Shown: positions 6,634 to 60,642 of the stretch, one piece after another | How the letters are laid out: each line of letters begins with the position of its first letter | How positions within the stretch are numbered: position 1 is the first letter of the stretch | Assembly (NCBI GenBank): GCA_045655725.1 | Contig: JAZOPT010000036.1 | Span: 6,542 to 70,541 of the forward strand | Origin: Candidatus Scatosoma sp. | GTDB taxonomy: Bacteria; Bacillota; Clostridia; Christensenellales; Borkfalkiaceae | Direction of reading: 5' to 3' | DNA length: 64,000 nt | The notes under the pieces: model-generated | The model's input: only the letters and a program-made list of their open reading frames with translations | What the model was told of the DNA's origin: nothing | Database searches by the model: none | Made by a program: the position numbers and the translations under genes

Positions 6634-6657
6634 AAAAGCGTATAAATAGGAATTACC

Positions 6658-14217: not shown

Positions 14218-14946
14218 ATGAATGCAAATTTTCAAGAGAATTTTCAAGGAAATTGGAAAACGGAATATTTTGACGAGCTTTCTTCGACAAGCGATTACGT
14301 AAAAGGCAAACGGCAGGAGGGAAACAACCTGATAGCGGTAGCCAAGCGGCAGTCGGGGGGCAGAGGAACGAAAGGTAGGTCGTTTTCTTCGGAAGCAGGG
14401 GGCGTATATTTATCCGCTCTTACCTTTTACGAAAACTTCCCTGCCAAGCGAGCGTTTGAAATTATGGCAAGTGCGGCGGTAGCGGTGTGCGAAACGCTGC
14501 GCTTTTACGGCGTAACGCCCGTTATCAAATGGGCGAACGACGTGCACGTAAACGGCAAAAAGATATGCGGAATCTTGATAGAAAACGTATTTTCGGGCGC
14601 AAACGTGTCCTCGTCGGTGGTGGGGATAGGCGTGAACGTAACCAACGCTCTGCCCGCCGAGCTTTCAGATATTGCCACGACGCTTGGCAAAGAAACGGGC
14701 AGGGAAATTTCCGCGGAGGAGGTAACGGCGAGGTTGATAGAACAGCTGAAAGCTCCGCATAGCATGGCAGATTACCTTTCTTACGTGGGATATATGGGCA
14801 AACGCGCCCAGCTGCTGATAGGGGAAAAACGTGTACGCGTAACGCTGATAAAGGTGGATAAAGAGGGCGGACTTATCGTTGAAAACGAGGACGGAACGCA
14901 AGTGCGGTACGTGGCGGCAGAAGTGTCGTTGCGGTTGGACGATTGA
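14218..14946 (+). CDS. birA: Biotin--[acetyl-CoA-carboxylase] ligase (group I, no HTH domain)
   Basis: GRGTKGRSF (the GRGRxGR motif) and KWANDVHVNGKKICGILIE. Confidence 0.88.
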   Translation: MNANFQENFQGNWKTEYFDELSSTSDYVKGKRQEGNNLIAVAKRQSGGRGTKGRSFSSEAGGVYLSALTFYENFPAKRAFEIMASAAVAVCETLRFYGVTPVIKWANDVHVNGKKICGILIENVFSGANVSSSVVGIGVNVTNALPAELSDIATTLGKETGREISAEEVTARLIEQLKAPHSMADYLSYVGYMGKRAQLLIGEKRVRVTLIKVDKEGGLIVENEDGTQVRYVAAEVSLRLDD

Positions 14947-20727: not shown

Positions 20728-21459
20728 ATGAAAAGCAATACGAAAAGCAATATAAAAAGCGCGATTTTTGCGATATCCATGGCGGTAATTATGGGGTTTG
20801 TTACGGCGTTGGCGTTGTGCGTACAGGCGTTACGAGCTCCAAAGGCGGTGTTTTCGGCGGCGGACGCGGGAATGCGAGTGGTGGTAGATGCAGGGCACGG
20901 CGGCATAGACGGCGGCGTGGTAGGCAGAAAAACGGGCGTTAAGGAAAGCGACCTCAATTTATCCATTTCGCGCAAAACGGCGTTAGTGTTGGAAGATATG
21001 GGCTTTGCCGTTACGCAAACGCGCAAAACGGAAGCGGGTCTGTACGGAACGGCGGCAAAAGGCTTCAAAAAGCGGGATATGCAAAAACGCAAAGAGATTA
21101 TCGCGGAGGCAGACCCTGCTTTGCTCTTGTCTGTGCATCAAAATTTCTATCCTACCCAAATGACCCGCGGAGCGCAAGTTTTTTATGCAAAAAAGGACGA
21201 AAATTCCAAGCGGTTGGCGCTTTGCTTGCAGACAAAGCTCAATGGGTTATACGCGGAAGAGGGGGTGAAAGCGCGGACGGCGAAAACGGGCGAGTTTTTC
21301 ATGCTTACCTGTGCCGACTGTCCGTCGGTGATTGTGGAATGCGGTTTTTTATCCAACGTTGCGGACGAGAAGCTACTTTGCAGCGACGTGTGGCAGCGGC
21401 GGTTGGCGGAGGCGATTGCGGGGGGTGTAATAGCCTACCTCTCCGATAGTATGGCTTGA
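20728..21459 (+). CDS. cwlD: N-acetylmuramoyl-L-alanine amidase, CwlD-like (spore cortex)
   Basis: Signal anchor, VVVDAGHGGIDGG, LLLSVHQNFYP, GAQVFY, ECGFLSN. Confidence 0.88.
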   Translation: MKSNTKSNIKSAIFAISMAVIMGFVTALALCVQALRAPKAVFSAADAGMRVVVDAGHGGIDGGVVGRKTGVKESDLNLSISRKTALVLEDMGFAVTQTRKTEAGLYGTAAKGFKKRDMQKRKEIIAEADPALLLSVHQNFYPTQMTRGAQVFYAKKDENSKRLALCLQTKLNGLYAEEGVKARTAKTGEFFMLTCADCPSVIVECGFLSNVADEKLLCSDVWQRRLAEAIAGGVIAYLSDSMA

Positions 21460-21478
21460 TTTTATAAACGGCGCATCT

Positions 21479-21545
21479 CTGCGTTGCGCTACGTTTTCCT
21501 TGCTCACGTACGAAAGTACGCTCCCGGCGGAAAGCCTCGCGCGCC
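21479..21545 (+). repeat. Intergenic repeat, copy 1 (diverged module 2 with GAAA-tetraloop hairpin)
   Basis: CTGCGTTGCGCTACGTTTTCCTTGCTCACGTACGAAAGTACGCTCCCGGCGGAAAGCCTCGCGCGCC; hairpin CGTAC-GAAA-GTACG at 21507-21520. Confidence 0.85.
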
Positions 21546-21595
21546 TTGACCTGCTTGTTTCTAAAATCAAGCGACTTACTTCCGCGGTTTACGCA

Positions 21596-21662
21596 CTGCG
21601 TTGCGCTGCGTTTTCCTTGCTTACGTACGAAAGTACGCTCCCGACGGAAAGCCTCGCGCGCA
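21596..21662 (+). repeat. Intergenic repeat, copy 2 (117-bp period)
   Basis: Three mismatches relative to copy 1 over about 66 nt; hairpin CGTAC-GAAA-GTACG at 21624-21637. Confidence 0.85.
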
Positions 21663-21720
21663 TTCTTTTGCATTTTCCTCCAAGATATACGCAACACCAA
21701 GAAAAGATTTGCAAAAGTGC

Positions 21721-25483: not shown

Positions 25484-25524
25484 TAAAGGCTCTGTCGCAA
25501 CACTCGGTTGTTTTTTGCCTACAA

Positions 25525-25578
25525 AATGCTACGTAATACGGCGTATAAGACCTTGGTTGCGTACCACAGAGGGTACGC
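25525..25578 (+). repeat. Degenerate member of the intergenic element family (ATGCTACG box plus GTAC-type hairpin)
   Basis: AATGCTACG at 25525-25533; hairpin GCGTACC-ACAGAG-GGTACGC at 25559-25578, followed by GCCCGCGG. A second hairpin GCGTATTG-CAAG-CAATACGC lies at 25625-25644. Confidence 0.4.
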
Positions 25579-25698
25579 GCCCGCGGCATATACTTGTCTT
25601 ACTTGCATTTTATAACGGCAAAACGCGTATTGCAAGCAATACGCTAATCAACCGCTTGTTGTGCCATCGCCCAAAAATAGAATTGGAGGAAAAGTAAA

Positions 25699-26031
25699 AT
25701 GGCAGGATTCAAAGGCGGCAACAACAATATGCAAAACCTGATGCGCCAAGCGCAGAAAATGCAAGAGGAAATGGAAAAGACGGCAGAGCTTCTTGACGAT
25801 TGGGAAGTGGTAGGCACGGCGGCAGGCGAAGCGGTTGTTGTGTACATGAACGCGAAGAAAATTATCAACGGTATCGAATTGGACGAAAGTATCGTCGATC
25901 CCACGGACGTAGAAATGCTGGAAGACCTCATCATGGCAGCCATCAACGACGGTTACGCAAAAGCGGACAAGGTGTATGAAGAGAAGATGGGGAGATATGG
26001 GGATATGGGGGCTCTCGGCGGCATACTCTAA
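25699..26031 (+). CDS. ybaB: Nucleoid-associated protein YbaB/EbfC
   Basis: 110 aa; NMQNLMRQAQKMQEEMEK and the conserved dnaX-ybaB-recR order. Confidence 0.93.
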   Translation: MAGFKGGNNNMQNLMRQAQKMQEEMEKTAELLDDWEVVGTAAGEAVVVYMNAKKIINGIELDESIVDPTDVEMLEDLIMAAINDGYAKADKVYEEKMGRYGDMGALGGIL

Positions 26032-26360
26032 AAACAAAGAATATGCTACGCATTTCTACGTCAAGCTTGCGTTTCCCCTTGGTCATGTACGGGTAAGTAC
26101 ACTCCCTGCGGGGAAGCCGCGCTTTCCTTGAACTGCTTGCATCTTGCTTCGTTTTTCGGGTCAACAGGCTTGGGTGGAAACCAAACTTTCCGCCGTTTTT
26201 CGGGATAAAGAGCTTGCGAGGTAACCATCAGTCGGGATAATAGGCTTGTACGGTTACGAACAGTTGGGGCAATGAACAAGCGGGGTCACCCAACAGTAAA
26301 TTATCTCACGCAAGAAAGATAGAAAGGCTTGGGGGCGGCAACCTGCCGCGTCAGTGGCGA
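26029..26360 (+). repeat. Composite structured intergenic element (module-1 ends flanking module 2 and extra hairpins)
   Basis: It starts on the ybaB TAA with TAAAAACAAAGAATATGCTACG. A 64-nt block at 26097-26160 is identical to 60516-60579. It ends AGATAGAAAGGCTTG...TCAGTGGCGACCCGCCAC, as module 1 does. Confidence 0.8.
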
Positions 26361-26385
26361 CCCGCCACGTTGGAGGGAATAACAC

Positions 26386-43369: not shown

Positions 43370-44806
43370 ATGTCAGGACTTTTGCTGAAAGGCATTAACA
43401 AAGTGTACCCTTCCGGTGTACAAGCCGTGTTCGATTTCTGTCTCGATATCAGAGATAAAGAATTCATCGTTCTCGTAGGCCCTTCCGGTTGCGGTAAATC
43501 TACCACGCTCCGTATGATCGCAGGTTTGGAAGAAATCTCTTCCGGCGAACTGTATATCGACGGTAAGCTTGTAAACGACGTTGTACCCAAGGACAGAGAT
43601 ATCGCCATGGTTTTCCAGAACTATGCATTGTATCCCCATATGTCCGTGTACGACAACATGGCGTTCGGTTTGAAACTTAGAAAAGTACCGAAGGAAATTA
43701 TCGACCAAAAGGTAAAAGCGGCGGCTGAAATTCTCGGCATCACCGACTACCTTTCCAGAAAACCTAAGGCACTTTCCGGCGGTCAGCGTCAACGTGTTGC
43801 GCTTGGTCGTACCATCGTTCGTGAACCCAAGGTATTCTTGCTCGACGAACCTTTGTCCAACCTCGACGCAAAACTCCGTGCTTCCATGAGAACGGAAATT
43901 TCCAAGCTCCACGCACGTCTTGCTACGACGTTTATCTACGTTACGCACGACCAAGTAGAAGCTATGACGATGGGTACGAGAATCGTTGTTATGAAGGACG
44001 GCTTCATGCAACAAGTAGATACCCCTCAAAACTTGTACGATTATCCTATCAACCTTTTCGTTGCAGGATTCATCGGTACGCCTCAAATGAACTTCTTCAA
44101 GGAATCCACGCTTACCTCCAAGAAAGGTAAAGTGTTTGTAAACTTCATCGGCGGCAACCAAATTTTGCTTCCGAAGAGCGTTGCTTCCAGAATTAAAAAC
44201 ATCAACGAATATCTTGATACGGGTAAGGTAATCACGCTCGGCGTACGTCCCGAAGATATTCACCAAGACCAAGCGTTCATCGCAACGTCTCCCGAAACGG
44301 TTGTAAAAGCACGTGTAGAAGTTATCGAAAAGCTCGGTGCTGAAACGCAAATCTACTGCGAACTTGACCACGAAGGCAAGGAAAGCTCGGTTATCGACAA
44401 CTCCACGCAGATGATCGCGAAGATTTCCAGCCGTGCGGTTGTAGCGTTGAAAGACGTTATCGACCTCGCATTCGACGCACAGCACATTCACCTCTTCGAC
44501 GGCGAAACGGAAGCTACGCTTCTTGAAAGAGACGAGGGCTACGAAGTTATCGAAGAAAATGCGGAAGGTTCGGCGTTCGTGCCTCCCACACCGCAGGAAA
44601 TGCGTGAACGTATCGATTCCGCTCGTATCGTAACGAAGGAAATGAAAGCGCAGGCAAGAAAGGACGCAAGAATGGCGAAGTTGGCTGCGAAGCAGGCGGC
44701 GGTAGCTCCCGTAGAAGAAGCGGAAGCACCCGTTGAAGAAGCTCCCGTAGAGGAAGCTGCTGTGGAAGAAGCTCCCGCAGAAGAAGCAAACAAAGAGCAA
44801 GAATAA
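43370..44806 (+). CDS. Sugar-importer-type ABC ATPase (MsmX/MalK/UgpC-like) with a C-terminal extension of about 100 aa
   Basis: GPSGCGKST, LSGGQRQRVALGR, LLDEPLSNLD and a TOBE-like domain. An extra tail ends in PVEEA-type repeats. No permease gene is adjacent. Confidence 0.9.
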   Translation: MSGLLLKGINKVYPSGVQAVFDFCLDIRDKEFIVLVGPSGCGKSTTLRMIAGLEEISSGELYIDGKLVNDVVPKDRDIAMVFQNYALYPHMSVYDNMAFGLKLRKVPKEIIDQKVKAAAEILGITDYLSRKPKALSGGQRQRVALGRTIVREPKVFLLDEPLSNLDAKLRASMRTEISKLHARLATTFIYVTHDQVEAMTMGTRIVVMKDGFMQQVDTPQNLYDYPINLFVAGFIGTPQMNFFKESTLTSKKGKVFVNFIGGNQILLPKSVASRIKNINEYLDTGKVITLGVRPEDIHQDQAFIATSPETVVKARVEVIEKLGAETQIYCELDHEGKESSVIDNSTQMIAKISSRAVVALKDVIDLAFDAQHIHLFDGETEATLLERDEGYEVIEENAEGSAFVPPTPQEMRERIDSARIVTKEMKAQARKDARMAKLAAKQAAVAPVEEAEAPVEEAPVEEAAVEEAPAEEANKEQE

Positions 44807-44823
44807 TCGTTTATCAAAAACCG

Positions 44824-44858
44824 CAACCCCGTGCATACCGCACGGGGTTGTTTTGTTG
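44824..44858 (+). terminator. Rho-independent terminator
   Basis: Perfect 11-bp stem CAACCCCGTGC / GCACGGGGTTG followed by TTTTGTTG. Confidence 0.85.
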
Positions 44859-44925
44859 TAAATTGAAAAAGACTCCTTTGGAAAGGATGGCCTAAAAGTA
44901 GTAATATTTTTTAGGAAATGTCCTA

Positions 44926-44971
44926 GAATAATATCAAACCACTTGATATTATTCGAGAAATAGAATATAAT
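44926..44971 (+). promoter_or_regulatory. Promoter of the R-M islet overlapped by a 12-bp-arm palindrome (candidate operator)
   Basis: GAATAATATCAA-ACCAC-TTGATATTATTC (44926-44954). TTGATA (44943-44948), 17-nt spacer, TATAAT (44966-44971). The -35 box lies within the right arm. Confidence 0.5.
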
Positions 44972-45004
44972 ATAACTATATAATATTTTATTGAGGTTTT
45001 TGGC

Positions 45005-46075
45005 ATGATTCAATATATGTCGGCAAGAGAAGCCGCGGAAAAATGGAATATATCGCAAAGAAGAGTGTCTATTCTTTGTTCGGAAAACAGAATCCCGAAC
45101 GTTGCAATGCTTGGTAATATGTGGCTTATTCCCCGCGACGCAGAAAAGCCCGTCGATGCAAGAATGAAGCGTAATACCGCGATGGAAAAATCAAGCATGC
45201 ATCCTTTTGTAAAATGGGCAGGTGGAAAAGGTCAGCTTTTAGAAGTTCTTAAAGCAAATCTTCCTCATAGCATGGGAACGGAAATTACAAAATATGCCGA
45301 ACCTTTTGTTGGTGGGGGTGCGCTTTTATTTGCGCTTTTAAACGAATATGCTTTTGAAGAAGTTTATATCAATGACAATAATAAAGAACTTATGAACGCC
45401 TTTACCGTTATAAAAACGAATTGTGAGTCTTTGATTGAGAAATTGCAAAACCTTCAAGGCGAATACGAAAAGCTTTCTATGGAAGCACAACAAGCGTATT
45501 ATTACGCTCAAAGAGATAAGTTTAACGATTTGCAATTAAGCGAAGAAACGGCAACAGAAAAGGCGGCTTTGTTCATCTTTCTTAATAAAACCTGTTTTAA
45601 CGGTCTGTATAGAGTAAATAAGTCGGGGAAATTTAACGTTCCTGCGGGGAAATATAAAAACCCGTTAATTTGCGATAAAGAAAACTTAATAAATATCTCA
45701 AAAAGACTGCAAAACGTTGTTATACGCTCTTGCGATTATCACGATGTAGAGTCGTTTGCGGACAGTAAAACGTTGGTTTATTTTGATCCGCCTTACCGTC
45801 CTTTGAATGTTACTTCTGCGTTTACGTCTTATACGGAAAATCAATTTACTGATAAAGACCAAACCGAACTTGCACAATTATACAAGAAATTATCCAATAA
45901 AGGGGTAAAAGTATTGTTAAGTAATTCTGATCCGCACAATGTCAATTTTGAAGATAATTTTTTTGACGATTTATATGAGGAATTTGATGTTCAGCGCATT
46001 ACCGCAGTGAGAATGATAAACAGCAAAGCGGAAAAACGCGGAAACGTTACAGAGCTTTTAATTAAAAATTATTAA
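45005..46075 (+). CDS. Dam-family N6-adenine DNA methyltransferase (GATC-type) with an N-terminal excisionase/MerR-like HTH domain
   Basis: The N-terminal 50 aa are MSAREAAEKWNISQRRVSILCSENRIPNVAMLGNMWLIPRD. They are followed by PFVKWAGGKGQLL, EPFVGGGALL, NDNN and DPPY (alpha-class order). Confidence 0.9.
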   Translation: MIQYMSAREAAEKWNISQRRVSILCSENRIPNVAMLGNMWLIPRDAEKPVDARMKRNTAMEKSSMHPFVKWAGGKGQLLEVLKANLPHSMGTEITKYAEPFVGGGALLFALLNEYAFEEVYINDNNKELMNAFTVIKTNCESLIEKLQNLQGEYEKLSMEAQQAYYYAQRDKFNDLQLSEETATEKAALFIFLNKTCFNGLYRVNKSGKFNVPAGKYKNPLICDKENLINISKRLQNVVIRSCDYHDVESFADSKTLVYFDPPYRPLNVTSAFTSYTENQFTDKDQTELAQLYKKLSNKGVKVLLSNSDPHNVNFEDNFFDDLYEEFDVQRITAVRMINSKAEKRGNVTELLIKNY

Positions 46076-46087
46076 GGAGATTTATAA

Positions 46088-46945
46088 ATGAGAGAGTTTA
46101 ATACTTGGCTGGGTCAGTTTAAGAGTAGTATTTCCGATTATGCGTATTATGTTGACTTTCAAAAAGTTTACGATAAGGTTGAAGCAATAAAAGTAGAACT
46201 TAATATTTTGAATTCGCTTATCGGTTCAGCGGATATAGAAAAAGATTTTGATAAACTTCTTTCTAAATACCCTGAAATCTTGAAATGTATTCCACTTCTT
46301 TTGGCGGTAAGAGAAAATGAAATTCACGCGATGGATAGCGACGGGGCATTTATTTACCATTTTAATAAAGCTAATTATACCGTAGAACAATACAAAGTAT
46401 TCATGAGAAAAACGGGTCTATTTGATTTAATCAGCAATCATTTGATAAATAATCTTGTGGATTATGCAACAGGCGTTGAAGTTGGTCTTGATAGCAACGG
46501 CAGAAAAAACCGTGGTGGTCATCTTATGGAAGATTTGGTAGAATCCTACATAAAGAGAGCGGGATTGGTTAAAGGTCAAACTTACTTTAAGGAAATGTAT
46601 CTTTCTGAAATTGAAACAAAATGGGGGCTTGATCTTTCTTCGTTGTCTAACAATGGAGAAGCAAAGAAAAGATTTGATTTTGTGATTAAATCAAATAACG
46701 TTGTTTATGCTATTGAAACAAATTTCTACGCTTCTTCGGGCTCAAAATTAAATGAAACTGCTCGTAGTTATAAAATGCTTGCGCACGAGTCAAAGGCGAT
46801 AGACGGATTTGCTTTTGTATGGTTTACCGACGGAATTGGTTGGAAATCTGCAAGAAACAACTTAAAAGAAACGTTTGACGTGTTGGATAATATCTACAAT
46901 ATTACCGATTTGGAAAACGGCATAATTGACGAACTTATAAAATAA
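46088..46945 (+). CDS. DpnII/MboI-family type II restriction endonuclease (GATC)
   Basis: Recalled similarity to DpnII along the whole length: N-terminus NTWLGQFKSSISDYAYYVDFQKVYDKVEAIKVELNILNSLIGS, core KRFDFVIK...ETNFY.SSGSKLNETARSYK. Confidence 0.85.
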   Translation: MREFNTWLGQFKSSISDYAYYVDFQKVYDKVEAIKVELNILNSLIGSADIEKDFDKLLSKYPEILKCIPLLLAVRENEIHAMDSDGAFIYHFNKANYTVEQYKVFMRKTGLFDLISNHLINNLVDYATGVEVGLDSNGRKNRGGHLMEDLVESYIKRAGLVKGQTYFKEMYLSEIETKWGLDLSSLSNNGEAKKRFDFVIKSNNVVYAIETNFYASSGSKLNETARSYKMLAHESKAIDGFAFVWFTDGIGWKSARNNLKETFDVLDNIYNITDLENGIIDELIK

Positions 46946-46946
46946 T

Positions 46947-47696
46947 ATGGCTACAAAAAAGAACACAATTAAATGGGAGCCTGATAATTTCGAGCTGGAA
47001 ACGAACACGGTATGGTCTTTCCCCAATCGCGGTAAATGGGCAACGCACGACGCAAAATGGCGTGGAAATTGGTCGCCTTATATACCGCGTAACATAATAC
47101 TTCGATATTCGCAAGAGGGGGATTGGATTCTCGATCAATTTGCGGGCGGCGGAACTACGCTTGTCGAAGCAAAGCTTCTAAATAGAAACTGTATCGGCGT
47201 GGACGTGAATCCGATTGCTTTAGAACGGTGCAAGGATAAATGCTCCTTTGAGCGTGAACAGCAGGGCAACGTTGATATTCGGCTTGGAGATGCGCGCAAG
47301 CTTGATTTTATTGAAAACGAATCGGTGGATTTGATTTGTACACACCCGCCGTATGCCAATATAATTGAGTATAGCGAAGATATCGAAAGCGACCTTTCAC
47401 TTTTGGAAATGAAAGACTTTTTAACAGAAATGTACAAGGTTGCCGAGGAAAGTTACAGAGTATTGAAAAAGGGCAAATTTTGCGCTATTTTAATGGGCGA
47501 TACCCGTAAAAAAGGCATGGTGCAGCCGCTCGCTTTTGAAACCATGCGTATTTTTGAACTCGTGGGGTTTAAGACAAAAGAAATTATCATTAAAGAACAA
47601 CACAACTGCAAAGCAACGGGGTTTTGGAAAACAAGCAGTATAAAACATAATTTCTTGCTTCTCGCACATGAATATTTATTTGTATTTAAGAAGTAA
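46947..47696 (+). CDS. Second DNA methyltransferase (N6A/N4C type; motif I precedes motif IV)
   Basis: LDQFAGGGTTLVEA (motif I) at about aa 70 and THPPYANI (motif IV) at about aa 133. Starts 1 nt after the endonuclease stop. Confidence 0.8.
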   Translation: MATKKNTIKWEPDNFELETNTVWSFPNRGKWATHDAKWRGNWSPYIPRNIILRYSQEGDWILDQFAGGGTTLVEAKLLNRNCIGVDVNPIALERCKDKCSFEREQQGNVDIRLGDARKLDFIENESVDLICTHPPYANIIEYSEDIESDLSLLEMKDFLTEMYKVAEESYRVLKKGKFCAILMGDTRKKGMVQPLAFETMRIFELVGFKTKEIIIKEQHNCKATGFWKTSSIKHNFLLLAHEYLFVFKK

Positions 47697-47714
47697 TAGT
47701 TTTTCTTTACCAAC

Positions 47715-47744
47715 AAAAAAACGCTCCTATGGGAGCGTTTTTGC
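47715..47744. terminator. Bidirectional terminator
   Basis: AAAAACGCTCC / GGAGCGTTTTT stem; lies between the convergent methylase gene and mnmG. Confidence 0.8.
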
Positions 47745-47745
47745 G

Positions 47746-49620
47746 TTATTTTCTTGTGGCAAGCCAAACCATCAACACGGATACGTCCGCGGGGTTGACT
47801 CCTGAAATTCTGCCCGCTTGACCTAAGTTTAAGGGTCGAACACGGTTTAATTTTTCCTGTGCTTCCAAGCGCAAGCCCAAAATTTCATCGTAGTTGATAT
47901 CGGGCGGGAGCAGCTTATCCTCCAAGCGCTTGGCTTTTTCTATCTGCTCAAAGCCCTGTTTTAAGTACCCCTCGTACCGAACGGCAATTTCCGCCGTTTC
48001 TAAAACGTCTTTTCGGTATTCTCCGAATACACCGAATTTCGCTATGATATCCTTTAAGGGCACGGAACGCTTTAACATATCCGCATACGAAACGCTGCCG
48101 CTAGGCGCGTTGTAGCCGTAGTCTGCCAAAAATTCTGCCGCCTGCTTTTGCGGAACTCGTTCTTGCATTTGGGATAAAAGTTGTTCGTAGGCTTGCTTTC
48201 TTTCCTGATACCGTAAATACCGCTCGTTCGTTACCAAGCCTACCGCTTTACCCTTTTCGGTTAAACGGAAATCGGCGTTGTCTTGGCGTAAGATAATGCG
48301 GTGCTCGGCGCGGGAGGTCATCATACGATATGGCTCGTCCGTGCCTTTGGTAACCAAATCGTCTATCAGTACGCCGATATACGCCTCGTCGCGGCGTAAC
48401 ACAAAGGGGGGCAAACCGCGCAATTTCAGCGAAGCGTTCAAGCCCGCCATAAGACCCTGCGCCGCCGCTTCTTCATACCCAGACGTTCCGTTGATTTGAC
48501 CTGCCGTATATATGCCCGATATTTTCTTAAATTCTAAGGTGGGCAGCACGTCCAACGTGTCGATGCAATCGTATTCTATGGCGTAGCCGTAACGCATGAT
48601 GTCCGCGTTTTCCAAGCCCGCAATAGACGAATACATCTGCCGTTGCACGTCGTGCGGCATGGAGGTGGACATACCCTGCACGTAAACCTCCAACGTGTCC
48701 GCGCCCTCGGGTTCTAAAAATATCTGGTGGCGTTCTTTGTCCTTGAAACGCACCACCTTCGTTTCGATAGAGGGGCAATACCGCGGTCCTGTGGATACAA
48801 TCGTGCCGTTGTAGAGCGGAGAACGCTCTAAATTGTCCAAAATAACCTCGTGCGTATGCAGGTTGGTATAGGTGAGATAGCAGGGCATTTTGTTTTCGGG
48901 TGGAACGTCGTGCAGGAAAGAAAACGGGTAAATATCCACGTCGCCGTTTTGGATTTCGCATTTAGAATAATCAATCGTTCTGCCGTCCACGCGCGCGGGA
49001 GTACCCGTCTTAAACCGCCGAACGTTAAAGCCCAAATCTATCAAATTTTTCGTCAAAAAGGTAGCGGGCGCAAACCCGTTCGGACCCGATTTTTGTACCA
49101 CGTCGCCCGTAATGGTTTCGCCGTTGAGATACACGCCCGTGCACAAAATCACAGCACGGCAGTTTATCACGCCGCCGTAGGAGGTCTTTACCCCCACGCA
49201 CGCGCCGTTTTCCACCAAAATTTCGCTTGCTTCCGCTTGAATGATACGAAGGTTAGGCGTGTTTTCCAACACTCGTTTCATCTCGCGGTGATAGGCGTTT
49301 TTATCCGACTGCGCGCGCAAGCTTTGTACCGCCGCACCCTTGCCGACGTTCAGCATACGTATTTGCAGAGCGGTATTATCCGCAATAATGCCCATTTCGC
49401 CGCCCAAAGCGTCTATTTCGCGGACAAGATGACCCTTTGCCGTGCCGCCGATAGAGGGGTTGCAGGGCAAAAACGCAATGCTATCCAAATTGAGCGTCAA
49501 AAGAGCGGTTTTTTGTCCTGTGCGCGCCAAAGCCAACGCGGCTTCACAGCCCGCGTGCCCTGCGCCGACCACCACCGCGTCCGCCGTATATTCTGTAAAC
49601 GTTACCTTACTGTTTGTCAT
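47746..49620 (-). CDS. mnmG: tRNA uridine 5-carboxymethylaminomethyl modification enzyme MnmG (GidA)
   Basis: VVVGAGHAGCEAALALAR FAD motif; full-length GidA, 624 aa. Confidence 0.97.
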   Translation of the reverse strand: MTNSKVTFTEYTADAVVVGAGHAGCEAALALARTGQKTALLTLNLDSIAFLPCNPSIGGTAKGHLVREIDALGGEMGIIADNTALQIRMLNVGKGAAVQSLRAQSDKNAYHREMKRVLENTPNLRIIQAEASEILVENGACVGVKTSYGGVINCRAVILCTGVYLNGETITGDVVQKSGPNGFAPATFLTKNLIDLGFNVRRFKTGTPARVDGRTIDYSKCEIQNGDVDIYPFSFLHDVPPENKMPCYLTYTNLHTHEVILDNLERSPLYNGTIVSTGPRYCPSIETKVVRFKDKERHQIFLEPEGADTLEVYVQGMSTSMPHDVQRQMYSSIAGLENADIMRYGYAIEYDCIDTLDVLPTLEFKKISGIYTAGQINGTSGYEEAAAQGLMAGLNASLKLRGLPPFVLRRDEAYIGVLIDDLVTKGTDEPYRMMTSRAEHRIILRQDNADFRLTEKGKAVGLVTNERYLRYQERKQAYEQLLSQMQERVPQKQAAEFLADYGYNAPSGSVSYADMLKRSVPLKDIIAKFGVFGEYRKDVLETAEIAVRYEGYLKQGFEQIEKAKRLEDKLLPPDINYDEILGLRLEAQEKLNRVRPLNLGQAGRISGVNPADVSVLMVWLATRK

Positions 49621-49627
49621 ACTCTCT

Positions 49628-50962
49628 TTATTTCTTCAAAACGATGTTTTTGATGTCGTCTATTTCTTTGGCGATTTTATCGTTCAGCTTTTCTAATTTT
49701 TCCATTTTATCGCGCGCATACATAATGGTAGTGTGGTCGCGCCCGCCCAGCTTTTTCCCAATGGCATCAAGGGGGAGGGAAAGCATTTCACACATCAAAT
49801 ACGCACAAATTTGCCGAGCTTTGGCAAGGTCGGCTTTTTTGCCTTTGCCCAAGAGGTCCTCTTTTTTCTGTTTGAAATACGAACAAACCGCCGAAATGAT
49901 GCTTTCGGGCGTGATATCCTCTTTGGATTCTTCTTCGCTCACCGATTCTCTTAACGCACGTTGCGCAAGCTCTAACGTAATGGGTTCTTCGTGCAGTCTG
50001 CTAGCGAAAATAACCTTTGTCAGCCTGCCCTCCAACATACGCACGTCGTGCCCCGAATTGCGGGTAAGAAATTCTAAAACGTCGTCGGGAACGGAGCATT
50101 TTCTATCCATAGCCTTACGCTTCAAAATAGCGATTTTCGTCTCCGTTGTCGGGGGTTGGATATCCGCAATCATACCGCCCTCAAAGCGGGTGCGCAATCT
50201 TTCTTCCAAGGTGGCAATTTCCTTGGGCGGACGGTCGGAGGTTAAAACGATTTGCTTGTTTTGAGCGGAAAGCTCGTTAAAGGTGTGGAAAAACTCTTCC
50301 TGCACCTGCGTTTTATTTTTCAAAAACTGTACGTCGTCAATCATCAAAACGTCCACGTTGCGGTAATGCAAGCGGAAGCGCGCGCCGTTCTTTTGCGCGA
50401 TAGAATCGATAAACTCGTTAAGGAAGTTTTCGCAGGTGGTGTACAGTACCTTTTTTTCGGGCGAACGCTGCGCGATATCGTTGGCGATTGCGTGCATAAG
50501 GTGCGTTTTGCCAAGACCCGATTCCCCGTAAATAAACAGGGGGTTGAACGTTTCTCCGGGGTTTTCCGCAACGGCTTTTGCCGCGGCGTATACAAACTTC
50601 GTTCCAGGTCCTACGACAAAGGAATCAAAGGTAAAGCCTTTGTTGATAGGGGAGGGCTGGAAGGCGTCCATAGCGTCCTCTTCCGCGTCCAGAGTATAAA
50701 CGTCGCTGCCCTCTACGTACAGACGGAAATCGTTGACGCCCAAGTCGCACTTTACGATAGCCTCGCGAATTTTTTCCGCGTGCTTGTTCATGATAACGCT
50801 TGCCGCCATATCCGTTTCCGTTTTCAGAATAATTTTTCTGCCCGAGATATCAATGGGTTCAAGCGGTTTGATAAACGTATTGTACGATACTTGTGAAATT
50901 AAATTTTCCACCCGTTCGCTGATCTGTCGCCAAACGTAAAGAAGTTGCGTGCTTTCCGGCAT
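49628..50962 (-). CDS. dnaA: Chromosomal replication initiator protein DnaA
   Basis: AAA+ Walker A GESGLGKTHL, Walker B LMIDDVQF, domain IV (DHTTIMYA). ATG at 50962 follows AAGGTGG. Confidence 0.96.
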   Translation of the reverse strand: MPESTQLLYVWRQISERVENLISQVSYNTFIKPLEPIDISGRKIILKTETDMAASVIMNKHAEKIREAIVKCDLGVNDFRLYVEGSDVYTLDAEEDAMDAFQPSPINKGFTFDSFVVGPGTKFVYAAAKAVAENPGETFNPLFIYGESGLGKTHLMHAIANDIAQRSPEKKVLYTTCENFLNEFIDSIAQKNGARFRLHYRNVDVLMIDDVQFLKNKTQVQEEFFHTFNELSAQNKQIVLTSDRPPKEIATLEERLRTRFEGGMIADIQPPTTETKIAILKRKAMDRKCSVPDDVLEFLTRNSGHDVRMLEGRLTKVIFASRLHEEPITLELAQRALRESVSEEESKEDITPESIISAVCSYFKQKKEDLLGKGKKADLAKARQICAYLMCEMLSLPLDAIGKKLGGRDHTTIMYARDKMEKLEKLNDKIAKEIDDIKNIVLKK

Positions 50963-51106
50963 AAGTTTATTCCCACCTTGCAATTATTTTCCGTGATTTT
51001 TTCTTTGAATGCTGTATATAACCTTGAAATTTTGAAAATTATTTGATATAATTATAATACAAAACGCGTAAAAAAGAAAGCGGTTTTGGGCGGATTTTTA
51101 AGGATT

Positions 51107-53335: not shown

Positions 53336-53410
53336 AAAACAGTATAAAATTAGGAAAAGTGTCGCAAGGCGAAGTTTCGGCTTTCCCATGCGGACAAAGG
53401 CAGGTTGACT

Positions 53411-54802
53411 ATGGAAAGACTTACGTTAAAACAGCTGAACGCAGACGTGTCGCAATATGGCGGCAAATCGGTAACGGTAGCGGGTTGGGCAAGGACCATT
53501 CGTGATTCCAAGGCGTTTGGATTTATCGAGCTCAACGACGGGAGCTGTTTCAAAAGCACGCAAATCGTATTCGAGCGGGCGAATATAAGCAATTACGACG
53601 AAATTGCGCACGGAAACGTGGGTATGTCGCTGATTGTCAAGGGGGAAGTGGTATTAACTCCCGAAAACAAACAGCCGTACGAAATCAAGGCGACGGAGAT
53701 AGCGATAGAGGGAGCTTCCACGCCCGATTATCCCTTGCAAAAGAAACGCCACTCGGTGGAATTTTTGCGGGAAATCGCCTATTTGCGCCCCCGTACCAAT
53801 CTTTTTGGCGCGGTGTTTAGAGTCCGCAGTGAAGCGGCGATTGCGGTGCATAAATTTTTCAATGAACGCGGATTTGTCTACGTGCATACGCCCATTATCA
53901 CGGGTAGCGATTGCGAGGGCGCGGGTGCGATGTTCCAAGTAACCACTTTGGATATGGACGCTCTTTCCAAGGGTGAGAAATTAGATTATAAATCGGACTT
54001 TTTCGGCAAAAAAGCCGCGCTTACGGTGTCGGGTCAGTTGAATGCGGAAACGTATGCGATGGCGTTTGGGAACGTATATACGTTTGGGCCTACCTTCCGT
54101 GCGGAGCATTCCAACACGGCGCGCCACGCTGCGGAATTTTGGATGATAGAGCCTGAAATGGCGTTCTGCGACCTCGCGGGCGACATGGACGTAGCGGAAG
54201 CAATGGTGAAATACGTCATCGATTACGTAAGCGAAACGTGCGCGGACGAGATTAACTTCTTTAATCAGTTTGTGGATACAGGCTTAAAGGAACGGTTAAA
54301 GAACGTTTCCGAAAACGCGTTTGTTCGCTTGACGTATACGGAAGCGATAGAGATATTAAAGCAAAACGCGGACAGGTTTGACGATAAAAACATTTTCTGG
54401 GGCAAGGATTTACAGAGCGAACACGAACGTTTCCTTACGGAAAGCGTGTTCAAAAAACCCGTGTTCCTTACCGATTATCCCAAGGAAATCAAGGCGTTTT
54501 ACATGAAGCTGAACCCCGACAACAAAACGGTGGCGGCGGCAGACTTGTTAGTGCCGGGTATCGGGGAATTGGTAGGCGGTTCGCAAAGAGAGGACGACTA
54601 CGATAAATTGGTAGCTCGTATCAAAGAGCTTGGTATGAATCCCGAGGATTATTCTTGGTATCTCAATTTACGCAAATACGGCGGAACGACGCACAGCGGC
54701 TTCGGTCTTGGTTTCGAGCGTATGATTATGTATTTAACAGGCGTTGCGAATATCCGCGATGTGGTGCCGTTCCCGCGCACGGTTAGCAATCTCGAATACT
54801 AA
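53411..54802 (+). CDS. asnS: Asparagine--tRNA ligase
   Basis: Class IIb synthetase: OB anticodon domain, [30 protein letters not shown]. Confidence 0.95.
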
Positions 54803-54946
54803 AAACGAAGAATATGCTACGGCGGGTGCGCCCGCAGCGAAACCGTATCTATCCTCTTATGGGGAAGTAAGATAGGTGCGTGTACGCGAGCGTAACGGTG
54901 TTTACGGATAAAGGATAGAAAGACTTGTCAGTGGCGACTCGCCACC
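54800..54946 (+). repeat. Structured intergenic element, module 1 (asnS-plsX copy)
   Basis: It begins on the asnS TAA. About 90% identical by eye to 60350-60498. Hairpins GCGGG-TGCG-CCCGC and GTGGCG-ACT-CGCCAC. Confidence 0.85.
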
Positions 54947-56755: not shown

Positions 56756-59700
56756 TTGAACTTAAAGGAAATACAACTTGTCGGCTTCAAATCCTTTGCC
56801 GATAAAACCACCATTCGTTTTGACGAAGGCGTAACGTGCATTGTCGGCCCTAACGGTTGCGGTAAGAGTAACGTAGCGGACGCGGTGCGTTGGGTGCTTG
56901 GCGAGCAATCGGCAAAATCCCTGCGCGGTTCTAATATGCAAGACGTTATTTTCGGCGGTACACTGTCGCGCAATCCGCAGTCGTTTTGCGAAGTAACGCT
57001 TGTTTTTGATAACGAACAGCACATATTCGATATGCCCACGCCGGAGGTGTCCATGACCCGTCGGCTTTACCGCACGGGCGAAAGTAAATACCTCATTAAC
57101 AACCAACCTAGCCGCTTGCGCGATTTGGTAACGCTGTTCCACGGTATCGGCTTGGGCAAAGAGGGGTATTCTATCATCGGTCAGGGCAAGGTAGAGCAAA
57201 TTATGAACGCGCGCTCCGAGGACAGACGCTTGATTTTCGAGGAAGCGCTTGGGTTAATGGTATATAAAACGCGCAAGCAGGAAATCGAGCGCAAGATAGA
57301 AAGTGCCAACGACAACCTCTTTATTTACCGTCAGCGTATCGACGAGGTAGAGGGTCGCCTCGGCAGAATGAGCAAGGAAGCGGCAAAGGCGAAAGAATAT
57401 TTAGAATACAGCGAGGCTTTGAAGCTGCAAGAGGCGAACACGTACATATACCGCTACGAAAACGCCGAATCGGAAAAGAGCAAGTTCAAAAAGGACATCG
57501 CCGTTATTTCCGATAAAATCATCGATTTGAACACGAAAATAGAGCTCATCAACCGCCGTTTGGAGGAGAACAGAGAAAAGATAAACCAAGCGGATATCCG
57601 CCTTACCGATTTGAACGACAAGCGCGTAGAGCTTTCCGTCGGCAACGAGAGAAAGGACGGCGAATTGAAGCTGGTACAAGAGCGTATCAAAACGTATAAA
57701 AGTCAGATAGAGGCAGCGACGGAAATGCTTGCCGCAAGTAAGGTGCGAATCGGGGAGATAGACGACGAAATCGCGCTGACCACCAAGAAAAACGCAGAGG
57801 ACACCAAGCGAATTGCGGAAGTGGAAACGCAAGCGGAGGTTTTGCGTTCGGCTATCGCCGCTTTGGATAAAAAGATAGAAGTCTTTGAAAAAATATCGGA
57901 CGAAAACCGTTTGAGTCAGCTTGGCGCGGCGGACGATTTATCCGAATTGAAGAAAAATTTGGGTACGCTTGCCGCTCGTATGGAAGCGACGAAAGAGAAA
58001 ATTAAAGAGCTGCAATCGGCAGTGGAGAAAACAAAGGAAAGAAAAGAGCGTTTAAGCGACGAGCTTTCCTCTGTAAAAAAAGACTTAAAAAGCTTAAAGG
58101 ACTTCACTTCCACGGGCATGCGCGACTTTGAGGAGAAGCAGGAAGAAGCACGTGAAATGCAGCTTACTATCAACGATTTCAACCAAGAGCTGTTTAACGC
58201 CAACGGTCAAATTGCCTCTCTCAAAGAAAACTTGGAGATGTACGTAAGCTTAAAAAACCGTTTCGAGGGGTATAAAGAATCGGTGCGCAGACTTTTGTCG
58301 GTAGCGAAAACCAATCCCGAGATAGGCAAGCGGCTTCACGGCGCACTTGCGGACGTAGTATCCACCGAGCAACGCTATGAAACGGCAATCGAAACGGCGA
58401 TAGGCGGGGCAATGCAAAACGTAGTAACGCCCACGGCGGACGACGCTCGGTATCTTATCGAGTATTTGAAACGTGCCAACGGCGGTATCGTAACCTTTTT
58501 GCCCGTATCGGGTATGCGCCCTCGCCCCGACTCCCGTGAAATACGCCGTGCCTTGGACGAACGCGGCGCAATGGGTCTTGCCACGGAGCTTGTTAAATAC
58601 GACGATTATTACTATAACGTGGTAAGCAATTTGCTTGGCAACACGCTGATTTGCGATAACATTGCCAACGCCACGGCGATTGCGAAAAAGTACGGGAACC
58701 TGTTCAAAATCGTTACGTTGGACGGCGATACTATCGCGACGGGCGGTTCGATGACGGGCGGTAGCCGCAGAAAGGACGCAGGTTCTTTCCTGTCCACCGA
58801 ACGTAAAATTCAGGAATGTAAAGAAAATATCGCCAAGAAGCAGAAATATATCGAAAAACTGAAAACGGCGATAGCGGAAAGCGAAAAGGCGCGTGCGGAA
58901 GCGGAGCGTGCGGTGGAAGCTTTGCGTGAAAAATATCAGGGCGCAAACAGCGAAATCGCGGGCTTGATGCAACGCCAAACCGCTTTGGAACAACAAATCT
59001 CCGAAACGGACTTGGATTTGGAAACGTACACCCAAGCTCTGCACGAATTTGAGGAGAAATTAAAGTCTTTGGAATACGAGGAAGCGCATTCCACGCAAAG
59101 CGAAGCGGAAATCAGTTCCTTGCGCCAAAAAGCGGAAGCGGAAATGGCGAGCCAGAAAAAGCAATCCGACCTGTTCAGAGAAGAGCGCGCGGAAAAGAGC
59201 AAAATTTTGCGCGAAACGGAGCTGGAATATACCGCACTTAGCTTGGCTATCGAAAAGCAAACGGACGCCATCGCTCGTTTGACGGTAGAAAAGGAAGAGC
59301 TTGTCAAGCGTATTTTGGACGTAGAATACGAAAAGACGGAAACGCAGACTCGCTTAAACGGTTTGGAAGCGGAAGCGCAGGAAAAGGAGCTTACCGAAGA
59401 GGAAAAGGCGGCTGTACAGGCGATCGTGGACGAGATTTCGGCAATCAATGCGGAAAAGGAAACGGTAAACGCGCAGCAGCTTACCTTGGAAGAGGAGAAA
59501 ACGCAGCTGCAAGAAACGCTTACCAAGCAATCGGACAAGCGGTATAAATGCGAAATAGAAATTAGTAAAATAGACACCAATTTGGAAAATATGCGTCAGC
59601 GTGTGGAAGAGGCGTACGGCATGGACTACGAGGCCTGCTTGCCTTATAGAAAGGAATCGTTCGACGTAGCGGAGGCGGCAAACCTTATTACCGCATTAAA

Positions 59701-60352
59701 GCGTAAAATTACCAACTTGGGTGCGGTAAACCCCAACGCCGTGGAAGAATACGAGTACGAAAAACAGCATTGCGACGAAATGATCACCCAGCGCGACGAC
59801 CTGCAAAAAGCTATTGACGATTTGCAAGCGGCGTTGGACGAGATTCGCGGGGAAATGCTGCGTATCTTCAACGAGGGCTTTGAGCAAATCAACGAGAACT
59901 TCAAAATTACGTTCAAAGAACTGTTCGGCGGCGGGAAAGCGGAATTGCAAATCAATTACGACGAAGCGGAAGACCCGCTTGCGGCAGGTATAGAAATCGT
60001 GGCTTGTCCTCCGGGCAAAAAGCTGACGAAAATATCCCTGCTTTCGGGCGGCGAACGCGCGCTTACGGCAATCGCGATTCTGTTTGCGATTTTGCGTGCA
60101 CGGCCTATGCCGTTCTGTATCTTGGACGAGATAGAAGCGGCTCTGGACGACGCAAACGTGGATAGATTTGCTTCTTACCTCAAACGTTTCGCGGAAGAAA
60201 CGCAGTTTATCGTTATCACGCACAGAAAGCCGACGATGAACCAAGCAGACTCCCTGTTCGGCGTTACCATGCAGGAAAAGGGTGTTTCAAAAATCGTTTC
60301 CGTGAAGCTGGCTGAGGTGGAGAGTAAGTTGGGCGCAGGCACTGTGGAGTAA
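56756..60352 (+). CDS. smc: Chromosome partition protein Smc
   Basis: TTG start. FKSFADKT...GPNGCGKSN, long coiled coils, hinge, LSGGERALTAIA, ILDEIEAALDDANV. Confidence 0.97.
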   Translation: MNLKEIQLVGFKSFADKTTIRFDEGVTCIVGPNGCGKSNVADAVRWVLGEQSAKSLRGSNMQDVIFGGTLSRNPQSFCEVTLVFDNEQHIFDMPTPEVSMTRRLYRTGESKYLINNQPSRLRDLVTLFHGIGLGKEGYSIIGQGKVEQIMNARSEDRRLIFEEALGLMVYKTRKQEIERKIESANDNLFIYRQRIDEVEGRLGRMSKEAAKAKEYLEYSEALKLQEANTYIYRYENAESEKSKFKKDIAVISDKIIDLNTKIELINRRLEENREKINQADIRLTDLNDKRVELSVGNERKDGELKLVQERIKTYKSQIEAATEMLAASKVRIGEIDDEIALTTKKNAEDTKRIAEVETQAEVLRSAIAALDKKIEVFEKISDENRLSQLGAADDLSELKKNLGTLAARMEATKEKIKELQSAVEKTKERKERLSDELSSVKKDLKSLKDFTSTGMRDFEEKQEEAREMQLTINDFNQELFNANGQIASLKENLEMYVSLKNRFEGYKESVRRLLSVAKTNPEIGKRLHGALADVVSTEQRYETAIETAIGGAMQNVVTPTADDARYLIEYLKRANGGIVTFLPVSGMRPRPDSREIRRALDERGAMGLATELVKYDDYYYNVVSNLLGNTLICDNIANATAIAKKYGNLFKIVTLDGDTIATGGSMTGGSRRKDAGSFLSTERKIQECKENIAKKQKYIEKLKTAIAESEKARAEAERAVEALREKYQGANSEIAGLMQRQTALEQQISETDLDLETYTQALHEFEEKLKSLEYEEAHSTQSEAEISSLRQKAEAEMASQKKQSDLFREERAEKSKILRETELEYTALSLAIEKQTDAIARLTVEKEELVKRILDVEYEKTETQTRLNGLEAEAQEKELTEEEKAAVQAIVDEISAINAEKETVNAQQLTLEEEKTQLQETLTKQSDKRYKCEIEISKIDTNLENMRQRVEEAYGMDYEACLPYRKESFDVAEAANLITALKRKITNLGAVNPNAVEEYEYEKQHCDEMITQRDDLQKAIDDLQAALDEIRGEMLRIFNEGFEQINENFKITFKELFGGGKAELQINYDEAEDPLAAGIEIVACPPGKKLTKISLLSGGERALTAIAILFAILRARPMPFCILDEIEAALDDANVDRFASYLKRFAEETQFIVITHRKPTMNQADSLFGVTMQEKGVSKIVSVKLAEVESKLGAGTVE

Positions 60353-60590
60353 AAACGAAGAATATGCTACGGCGGGTGCGCCCGCGGCGAAACCTTATCT
60401 ATCCTTTTTTTGGGGGAAGTAAGATAGGTGCGTGTACGCGAGCGTAACGGTGTTTACGTAAGAATGATAGAAAGGTTGGTCAGTGGCGACCCGCCACCTT
60501 GGTCGTGTACGTAAAGTACACTCCCTGCGGGGAAGCCGCGCTTTCCTTGAACTGCTTGCATCTTGCTTCGTTTTTCGGGGTAACAAGCTT
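60350..60590 (+). repeat. Structured intergenic element, module 1 (60350-60498) joined to module 2 (60497-60590)
   Basis: It begins on the smc TAA. Module 2 contains a 64-nt block (60516-60579) identical to 26097-26160 and the hairpin GTGTAC-GTAAA-GTACAC. Confidence 0.85.
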
Positions 60591-60642
60591 ACGTAAAAAG
60601 ACCGCTACGGGCGGCAAGACTTAAACAAAAAAGGAACAACGT

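Follow-up and report, generated by a model that had tools for sequence, protein, structure and literature searches.

Stop-codon-anchored hairpin repeats resembling BOX elements in operons of uncultured gut Clostridia

The BOX elements of Streptococcus pneumoniae are built from terminal boxA and boxC modules that pair with each other around a variable number of internal boxB modules, show target duplications and range from 67 to 637 bp, and several permutations of BOX-type modules occur in S. suis (PMC3049150). Pneumococcal BOX copies supply the stop codon of 36 genes, without evidence of truncation (Croucher et al. 2011, PMC3049150). Among other short repeats, RNase III cleaves Correia hairpins and ERIC works through RNase E, depending on its orientation (PMC10969869), and MIRU are fixed-orientation repeats at the intercistronic junctions of operons, which overlap a translation signal with little disturbance of the neighboring gene (PMC12548453). 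Our literature search found no stop-codon-targeting miniature inverted-repeat transposable element (MITE) described in Clostridia, the nearest precedent being BOX. Here, we describe the follow-up of an original prediction made on a 64-kb stretch of DNA from Candidatus Scatosoma sp. (contig JAZOPT010000036.1; hereafter the window), in which a structured non-coding element of about 147 nt, module 1, had been noticed in the asnS-plsX spacer (copy A, 54800-54946) and the smc-ftsY spacer (copy B, 60350-60498). We found that this 147-base feature is real but mis-delimited as a single element, and that it is part of a new BOX-like family, unusually clean in its near-universal stop anchoring, its complete orientation bias and its compensatory hairpin evolution. 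The explanation we favor, with moderate confidence, is that module 1 is a patchwork copy of BOX-like modular, MITE-type repeats that use the TA of stop codons as their entry site where operon genes are closely spaced, and that are co-transcribed with the operon.

The two copies showed 90.6% identity over 149 aligned columns with one 2-nt indel (blastn), in agreement with the roughly 90% first estimated by eye, and the alignment confirmed that their 5' 36 nt and a 46-nt core are identical. A 38-nt core pattern occurred exactly twice in the window, as compared with zero occurrences expected from 100 shuffles. As predicted, the first three bases of each copy are the TAA stop of the upstream gene: the TAA at 54800-54802 ends the open reading frame (ORF) 53405..54802 (asnS), and that at 60350-60352 ends the ORF 56756..60352 (smc). 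The C-terminus of AsnS is full length relative to its relatives, indicating that the TAA of copy A is the native stop. The hairpins GCGGG-TGCG-CCCGC and GTGGCG-ACY-CGCCAC are both present. No terminator-like site was predicted in 54800-54946 or 60350-60498, consistent with the claimed lack of a U-tract terminator, and the same promoter/terminator scan predicted no promoter-like site inside either copy. The 2-nt indel shifts the frame between the copies, which leaves no common coding frame. No Rfam family was matched, with 0 matches at gathering score over the whole window and only chance-level matches in permissive scans of both copies and one related array. Module 1 alone folded weakly better than shuffles (z of -1.3 and -2.1 for the two copies), and it is not a free-standing RNA gene.

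Two points of the original prediction did not hold, namely that there are only two copies and that the 147 nt form one element. A low-stringency search of the window revealed a third locus, 26029-26369 between ybaB and recR, in which the outermost 22 nt (5') and ~35 nt (3') of module 1 recur, and copies of the interior of module 1 were found in other strains of the same species. The 147 nt are chimeric: the terminal arm of a hairpin unit is joined to a separable module, X, the 3' part of which is termed T. For comparison, PlsX relatives were gathered from metagenomes and metagenome-assembled genomes (MAGs), the collected loci and contigs being designated by L-numbers. The layout of the two copies is as follows.

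54800..54821, plus strand: head of copy A, the left terminal arm TAAAAACGAAGAATATGCTACG of the hairpin unit, which opens with the asnS TAA stop.
54822..54946, plus strand: module X of copy A, made of the X body and the T module, with no right arm after it.
54822-54912, plus strand: X body of copy A, with the hairpin GCGGGTGCGCCCGC at 54822-54835.
54913-54946, plus strand: T module of copy A, GGATAGAAAGACTTGTCA and then the hairpin GTGGCGACTCGCCAC at 54931-54945.
From 54947, plus strand: native spacer after copy A with the ribosome-binding site CCAAAGCAAGGAG, as compared with the empty sites of L092 and L017.
60350..60371, plus strand: head of copy B, which opens with the smc TAA stop.
60372..60498, plus strand: module X of copy B, the X body plus the T module.
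60499..60575, plus strand: 3' two-thirds of the copy B unit, comprising the apical GTAC hairpin, the right inner arm and the right terminal arm.
60576..60642, plus strand: rest of the smc-ftsY spacer, the CGGGGTAACAAGCTT linker module and a weak hairpin.

The 5' end of the copies, TAAAAACGAAG, is complementary to CTTCGTTTTT at 60566-60575, which pairs with the head of copy B at 60351-60360 and lies in a right arm at about 60555-75. Because of this complementarity, copy B reads as a complete unit in which X stands in place of 27 nt of the left inner arm; copy A reads as a head plus X, the remainder of the unit apparently having been lost. Thus the statement that module 1 has no terminal inverted repeats is correct inside the 147-nt coordinates, but the right arm of copy B lies beyond them and the family does have inverted arms. 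The interior of the ybaB-recR locus is unlike that of module 1 and includes 'module 2' (26095-26160), with 100% identity over 66 nt to 60514-60579. Farther downstream, a second TAA (60622-60624) directly before the ftsY ribosome-binding site matches the empty-site junction TAA-GAAAAAGGAA of L093.

Alleles with and without X are collinear on both flanks (the first 23 nt and the last ~80 nt) in two unit subfamilies, and their alignment showed that X (~125-126 nt) substitutes for 25-27 nt of the left inner arm. In strains of the same species with YbaB identical to that of the window, X was present in the second ybaB-recR unit of L108, L114 and L115 and missing from that unit in L107 and L110, and L110 carried X inside a T module. 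Since X stands behind two different heads and also inside a T module, it is separable from the head. The last ~35 nt of X, GATAGAAAGNNTTGNNCAG with a hairpin, make up the T module, which stands alone at 26311-26369 of the window and also occurs in another species (L103), where the hairpin stems are different yet still complementary. GC-rich hairpins stand at both ends of X, which lacks inverted ends. The five X copies are 91% identical, and 3 of the 39 pairs predicted by RNAalifold covary, two of them in the terminal hairpin; with so few covarying pairs, X is unsupported as a structured RNA in its own right. A small hairpin within X (window 54863-54880) pairs an anti-Shine-Dalgarno-like CCUC with the Shine-Dalgarno-like GGGG(AAG), and L108 reads CUUC...GAGG at this place, still paired. 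The same asnS-plsX insertion was found in a strain with 98% identical PlsX, the contig of which breaks within the repeat. At L091:1-45 (98% identical PlsX), where the contig begins inside the repeat, the 3' hairpin of module 1 is expanded to three tandem GAC(C/A)CGCCACC.

The basic unit of the family is a rod-like hairpin of 104-128 nt, with interior classes of 104, 125 and 127 nt. Its left terminal arm, the head, has the consensus TAAAAAC[GA]A[AC]G.AT and its right terminal arm the form ...C[TG]TTTGTTTTTA; between these lie the inner arms and an apical (G/T)TAC-loop-GTA(C/A) hairpin. In a scan of one genome per species, the 22-mer head (with one R position) was found in 9 units of the sheep-rectum MAG 'Clostridia bacterium RGIG6424', the only other genome matched being a Flavobacterium with one chance match. 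In RGIG6424 the 22-mer invariably opens a unit of 105-127 nt that closes with the inverted complement of this left end (TAAAAACAAAGAATATGC ... GCATCTTGCTTTGTTTTTA). Every complete unit has a head complementary to its right arm, and the terminal inverted repeats TAAAAACAAAG...CTTTGTTTTTA and their subfamily variants co-vary, giving the unit the inverted ends of a MITE; as to module 1, only copy B has such ends, copy A being without a right arm. In a typical array, a single complete unit on the stop codon precedes 5'-shortened units that keep the right arm, as well as other hairpin modules.

A consensus structure of 22 pairs was derived from eleven ~104-nt units of four genomes, and 9 of these pairs showed compensatory double changes. 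Paired cells amounted to 96.3%, as compared with 84% in shuffles, none of the 500 shuffles reaching the observed value, and the pairing fell to 22-48% of cells when partners were slid by 1-3 columns. One 5-bp inner stem, for example, reads GCCTT/AAGGC, GCTAC/GTAGC, GGTGC/GCACC or GTCGC/GCGAC in different copies, and the arm variants ATTTC/GAACT, AATAC/GTCTT and ACTTC/GAATT show a perfect left-right association across head types and interior classes. Covariation is therefore a property of the canonical unit (9/22 pairs) and hardly of X (3/39). The terminal stem is interrupted by an asymmetric internal loop of conserved position. The sense strand is 59% pyrimidine, and since its unpaired and mismatched positions are mainly pyrimidines, predicted folding is better for the antisense than for the sense strand (-42.4 vs -35.6 kcal/mol; 22 of 24 units). 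Shine-Dalgarno-like tetramers numbered 3 on the sense strand and 42 on the antisense strand of 12 units, and 31 and 95, respectively, in whole arrays. The longer unit classes carry an unpaired CUCC(C/U) 3' of the apical hairpin, which is conserved across unit subfamilies.

At 24 of the 26 distinct sites with a recognisable head, the TAA of the head (in one case TAG) is the stop codon of a long ORF. As background, of all TAA trinucleotides in these sequences only 5-15% close a frame of at least 100 codons, and the binomial chance of 24/26 at a background of 0.15 is below 1e-17. One of the two exceptions is a head-like TAAACGG in the window, 5 nt after a TGA stop, and the other is a unit of L007 after a terminator-like hairpin; these off-stop cases indicate that the anchor is TA(A) and not the act of termination. 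The length of the A-run behind the TA, 3 to 7, differs among copies and strains in a manner suggestive of slippage. A second TAA directly before the ribosome-binding site, like that of the empty junctions, was found in smc-ftsY of three species and in asnS-plsX of RGIG6424, and would be the expected trace of a TA/TAA duplication. All units and fragments lie on the strand of the upstream gene (~35 non-redundant copies), as does every match of a hidden Markov model (HMM) of the unit, and there was no case of a right end abutting an opposite-strand gene. The GC skew rises cumulatively across the whole window with no switch, although dnaA is present, and gene and replication direction are inseparable here.

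The unit HMM matched the window species, the RGIG6424 group, the P0005 group, L011, L012, L015 and L093, whereas a set of 73 more distant PlsX loci (879 kb) gave no match, nor did L100-102 or L092. Among the loci examined, the family is thus confined to a few related gut Clostridia, with at least 15 sites in MAG RGIG6424. The asnS-plsX and smc-ftsY junctions are empty, with 11-23 nt consisting of TAA and then the ribosome-binding site, in L092, L100-102, L014 and L017, and are filled by other arrays of the family in the RGIG6424 group, the P0005 group, L011 and L015. The relatives with empty orthologous spacers have 84-87% identical PlsX, and in L100 the whole 21-kb syntenic region is without any unit. 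Turnover was also evident among strains: the ybaB-recR spacer measures 354, 491 or 651 nt, with differing first units, in strains with identical YbaB or flanks; L094 and L096 differ by a 109-nt indel bounded by a 21-nt direct repeat; and L097 carries another head type on the same smc stop codon. No match to element patterns was found in viral contigs (two patterns), a phage collection or a plasmid collection, and an exact look-up of the window PlsX and FtsY sequences returned no record. The original suggestion of a stop-codon-targeting miniature mobile element was thus largely borne out for the family, as dispersed repeats of one lineage that are present or absent among relatives and strains and have 24 of 26 heads on a stop, but not for the coordinates first given, which do not enclose one element.

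As in MITEs, the units are small (104-128 nt, against an upper limit of about 300-500 bp for the class), non-coding and dispersed, with inverted ends and presence/absence polymorphism; as in BOX-type repeats, complementary terminal modules (the constant head and the right arm) enclose a variable internal set. We therefore prefer the hypothesis that the units insert at TA(A) sites. The operon junctions of this lineage, 11-23 nt with TAA followed by the ribosome-binding site, would leave the TA of the stop codon as almost the sole tolerated target, and because the element begins with an A run, its A-rich start would regenerate the TAA stop and leave the protein unaltered. The arrays would then be co-transcribed as hairpins within the operon mRNA, selection would retain only the pyrimidine-rich orientation that is free of, or poor in, Shine-Dalgarno-like motifs, and arrays would grow, shrink and reshuffle via recombination between modules. 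Any effect on mRNA processing or stability would be a by-product. In this scheme we infer the TA target and its duplication, the co-transcription, and the selection behind the orientation bias.

Several observations weigh against this hypothesis. The ~400 kb of the lineage examined yielded neither a transposase nor a parent insertion sequence with matching ends. A palindromic TA target predicts both orientations, so that the total bias must be ascribed to selection, and a transposase binding the ends would not need inner-stem covariation. Arrays of one full unit plus 5'-shortened units that keep the right arm are unusual for cut-and-paste MITEs. With regard to the target duplication, other arrays lack the second TAA, TA is missing from the right end of several units (L007:492; those of the window end GTTTTTCGGG), no clean filled/empty pair occurs among very close strains, and TA[AG] before a ribosome-binding site is common anyway in A-rich leaders. 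Finally, the argument for co-transcription is drawn from the co-directional flanking genes and the lack of predicted promoters and terminators in the elements.

An alternative is that the units serve in the first place as cis-acting RNA modules with a function in the operon mRNA, their spread being secondary. Such modules may serve in processing (e.g., by RNase III, rnc being in the same operon), in 3'-end protection or in the tuning of translation of the downstream cistron via the unpaired anti-Shine-Dalgarno-like CUCC. This would account for the strong covariation and the conserved asymmetric internal loops, the strict sense orientation with a hairpin that begins exactly at the stop codon, the conservation of CUCC(C/U) across subfamilies, the depletion of Shine-Dalgarno-like motifs on the sense strand and the location in terminator-less junctions of co-directional genes, and it has a precedent in the Correia and ERIC hairpins as RNase III and RNase E targets (PMC10969869). 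However, the same junctions are empty in close relatives and the L100 region is unit-free, and therefore the modules are dispensable. In addition, the array content of one locus can be wholly different among strains with identical flanking proteins, copy A, having no right arm, is unable to fold into the unit hairpin, better folding is predicted for the antisense strand, and no Rfam family was matched. We consider this alternative unlikely. The processing or stability role that had been proposed for module 1 fares likewise: the canonical unit covaries strongly, X covaries very little, and close relatives manage without the elements.

Equally tentative is the view that the family differs from ordinary cut-and-paste MITEs and is a strand-specific hairpin element anchored on stops by its mechanism, either single-stranded DNA or RNA-linked, or else a domesticated intercistronic RNA module. 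It is favored by the complete sense orientation of the ~35 non-redundant copies, by the compensatory change in the inner stems, by the presence of 5'-shortened, 3'-intact units in arrays and by the repeated occupation of the same stop codons by different subfamilies. If the module were domesticated, the unpaired CUCC and the stop-embedded stem could tune termination, processing or re-initiation in operons.

A more specific proposal, in which a strand-specific HUH/Y1 transposase (REP/REPIN-RAYT-like or IS200/IS605 PATE-like) mobilizes the units as hairpins of single-strand DNA, appears rather improbable to us. Insertion 3' of a short target (TAA) on one strand would fix the orientation without selection, which agrees with the uniform orientation and with a left end that is always at TAA with no conserved bases further upstream. 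The recurrence of variable-stem hairpins beside conserved linkers in arrays (T modules; hairpin plus AATTCAC arrays), the GC-rich hairpin at each end of X, which has no inverted ends, and the unequal folding of the two strands also fit. However, the two ends of the unit are inverted complements of each other, which the left and right ends of IS200/IS605 are not, a GTAG/CGTC REP head is missing, and tblastn with an IS200 TnpA sequence gave no match in ~400 kb of the lineage, although this is a weak test. To our knowledge, a 3-nt target is shorter than any in the IS200/IS605 family. The right-flank TAA retained in several arrays fits a duplication better, and the lack of a GC-skew switch leaves gene and replication direction inseparable in the window. 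PATE have subterminal hairpins without inverted ends and insert 3' of a fixed 4-5-nt target. A derivation as PATE was rejected for the unit, whose ends are inverted complements with only TAA conserved upstream; X alone has a hairpin at each end as a PATE would, but it replaces 25-27 nt rather than being a simple insertion.

Chance local duplication, or a short peptide-coding role like that of the coupled ORFs of MIRU, is highly improbable and is excluded as far as the sequence evidence reaches: the ATG in the head (GAATATGC) does open ORFs of 19-27 codons in both copies, but copies occur at several loci in several genomes, the 2-nt indel alters the frame, H2-type heads have no ATG, and there is no overlap with a downstream start codon.

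Returning to the preferred hypothesis of MITE-type repeats in stop codons, the likeness to BOX of S. pneumoniae and S. suis is one of architecture and behavior, and no sequence relationship is claimed. Both are modular intergenic repeats of Firmicutes with complementary terminal modules around a variable interior, long predicted stem-loops, co-transcription with neighbors (inferred here), clustered or nested copies and sizes that vary among strains. The present family differs from BOX in that stop anchoring is the rule (24/26 sites), all copies are in the orientation of the gene and the inner stems are compensatory; ISSpn2 has been proposed as the parent of BOX, whereas no candidate parent insertion sequence was seen here. 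Correia/NEMIS of Neisseria and ERIC/IRU of enterobacteria resemble the family as 100-160-nt elements with inverted ends and long mRNA hairpins, and Correia targets TA, but they occur in both orientations, are not tied to stops and do not form modular mosaics. With REP/BIME/REPIN the family shares extragenic mosaic clusters dispersed in one genome and short variable-stem hairpins beside conserved motifs; however, REPs are imperfect palindromes of 20-40 nt with a GTAG or CGTC head, which is absent here, all modules are in one orientation instead of alternating, and no RAYT was seen in the sequence examined, and this class was rejected. REPs near stop codons can reportedly influence the expression of the upstream gene, as Liang, Rudd and Deutscher are said to have described in 2015.

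MIRU, which lie at start codons with a translationally coupled ORF, differ in that the family here overlaps the stop codon and has no conserved ORF; the frame-changing indel and the ATG-less H2 heads leave no coupled internal ORF. The attC sites of integrons are 57-141-nt hairpin sites directly after stops, in fixed orientation, with only the AAC...GTT ends conserved and a center that varies yet pairs. The family is similar in having a hairpin right after the stop, a fixed orientation and a variable paired center, but its ends are TAAAAAC/GTTTTTA and not RYYYAAC/GTTRRRY, it is flanked by housekeeping genes of conserved order (asnS, plsX, rnc, smc and ftsY) rather than by cassettes, and no integrase lies in the neighborhood. 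An intrinsic terminator or SPRITE-like element was also rejected, as neither copy has a terminator-like site.

If the preferred hypothesis is correct, uncultured gut Clostridia carry a BOX-like system that colonises the stops of essential housekeeping operons without harm, the occupied operons and loci being asnS-plsX-rnc-smc-ftsY, ybaB-recR, glmS, def-fmt and trmD. It would be a natural example of a mobile element that is neutral by design, regenerating the stop and avoiding ribosome-binding motifs, and its interest would be greater if the orientation and anchoring turn out to be mechanistic. The family offers a ready set of covarying intercistronic hairpins for studying the effects of RNA structure at stop codons on termination, processing and coupling. 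It would also account for the breaking of contigs, and for possible chimeric joins, when metagenomes with these organisms are assembled, and its hypervariable array loci would be usable for strain typing.

The window holds five unit loci in total. Besides the two copies of module 1, these and their parts are as follows.

26029..26156, plus strand: canonical unit between ybaB and recR, complete at 128 nt and without X, starting on the ybaB TAA stop (HMM, 107.6 bits).
26157..26369, plus strand: remainder of the ybaB-recR array, three CGGG-TAA..GCTTG linkers and T modules.
26311-26369, plus strand: T modules of this array, GAAAGATAGAAAGGCTTGG, the hairpin GGCGGCAACCTGCCGC and the hairpin GTGGCGACCCGCCAC at 26354-26368.
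21463..21671, plus strand: two tandem degenerate units, whose head-like TAAACGGCG begins 5 nt past the TGA stop of the ORF 20728..21459.
25524..25611, plus strand: decayed unit without a head in the dnaX-ybaB spacer, found by the unit HMM.

The 3' end of the ybaB-recR array is the same as that of module 1. Three copies of a short linker module, (T)TTTTCGGG-[AT]-TAA/CAAC-N-GCTTG, lie in the ybaB-recR array and one lies behind copy B (window 26151-26260 and 60570-60600), in each case after a right arm.

Other arrangements were noticed in the collected loci. The arrays before plsX in L103 (9525-10006) and L104 (9667-10006) are nearly the same, each with the TAA of the upstream gene followed by a head; the upstream gene is asnS in one of the two and a DUF711 gene in the other, and the difference is due either to a recombination event involving elements of two loci or to chimeric assembly of the metagenome at the repeat. 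In a strain of the window species (L109:3386-3639), the first ybaB-recR unit is interrupted at its apex (GGTTA|...) by a sequence unrelated to the unit, with repeated GGCGGATTTT/AAAATCCGCC motifs and no match in any collected sequence, inside which the contig ends; this may be another mobile element that targets the unit. Many contigs of the window species end just past the ybaB head (L111-L113). L093, a relative with 86% identical PlsX, carries a different short repeat, GAGAGGTCAAGGAACTTAGTTCCTTGCGGGAGG with the hairpin CAAGGAAC-TTA-GTTCCTTG, after three stops (TAA, TAA and TGA; 6649-6694, 13676-13860 and 14690-14851), as well as a unit with a TAG head (TAGAAAGTC...GCCTTTC) after recF. RGIG6424 has arrays of 6-8 short hairpins with differing stems (L094:9762-10000; L003:3091-3330; L006, minus strand from 7122), in which GTGAATT flanks the first half of the hairpins and AATTCAC the second half, with a palindrome at the center. 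These arrays begin on a stop codon behind a family head and follow a REP/BIME-like logic.

In the window itself, dnaA (49628-50983, minus strand) and mnmG (minus strand) adjoin a plus-strand recF-like gene, and given the absence of a switch in GC skew, the origin of replication may lie elsewhere than next to dnaA here. The GC content of positions 44001-48000 is 0.40, as compared with ~0.49 elsewhere in the window.

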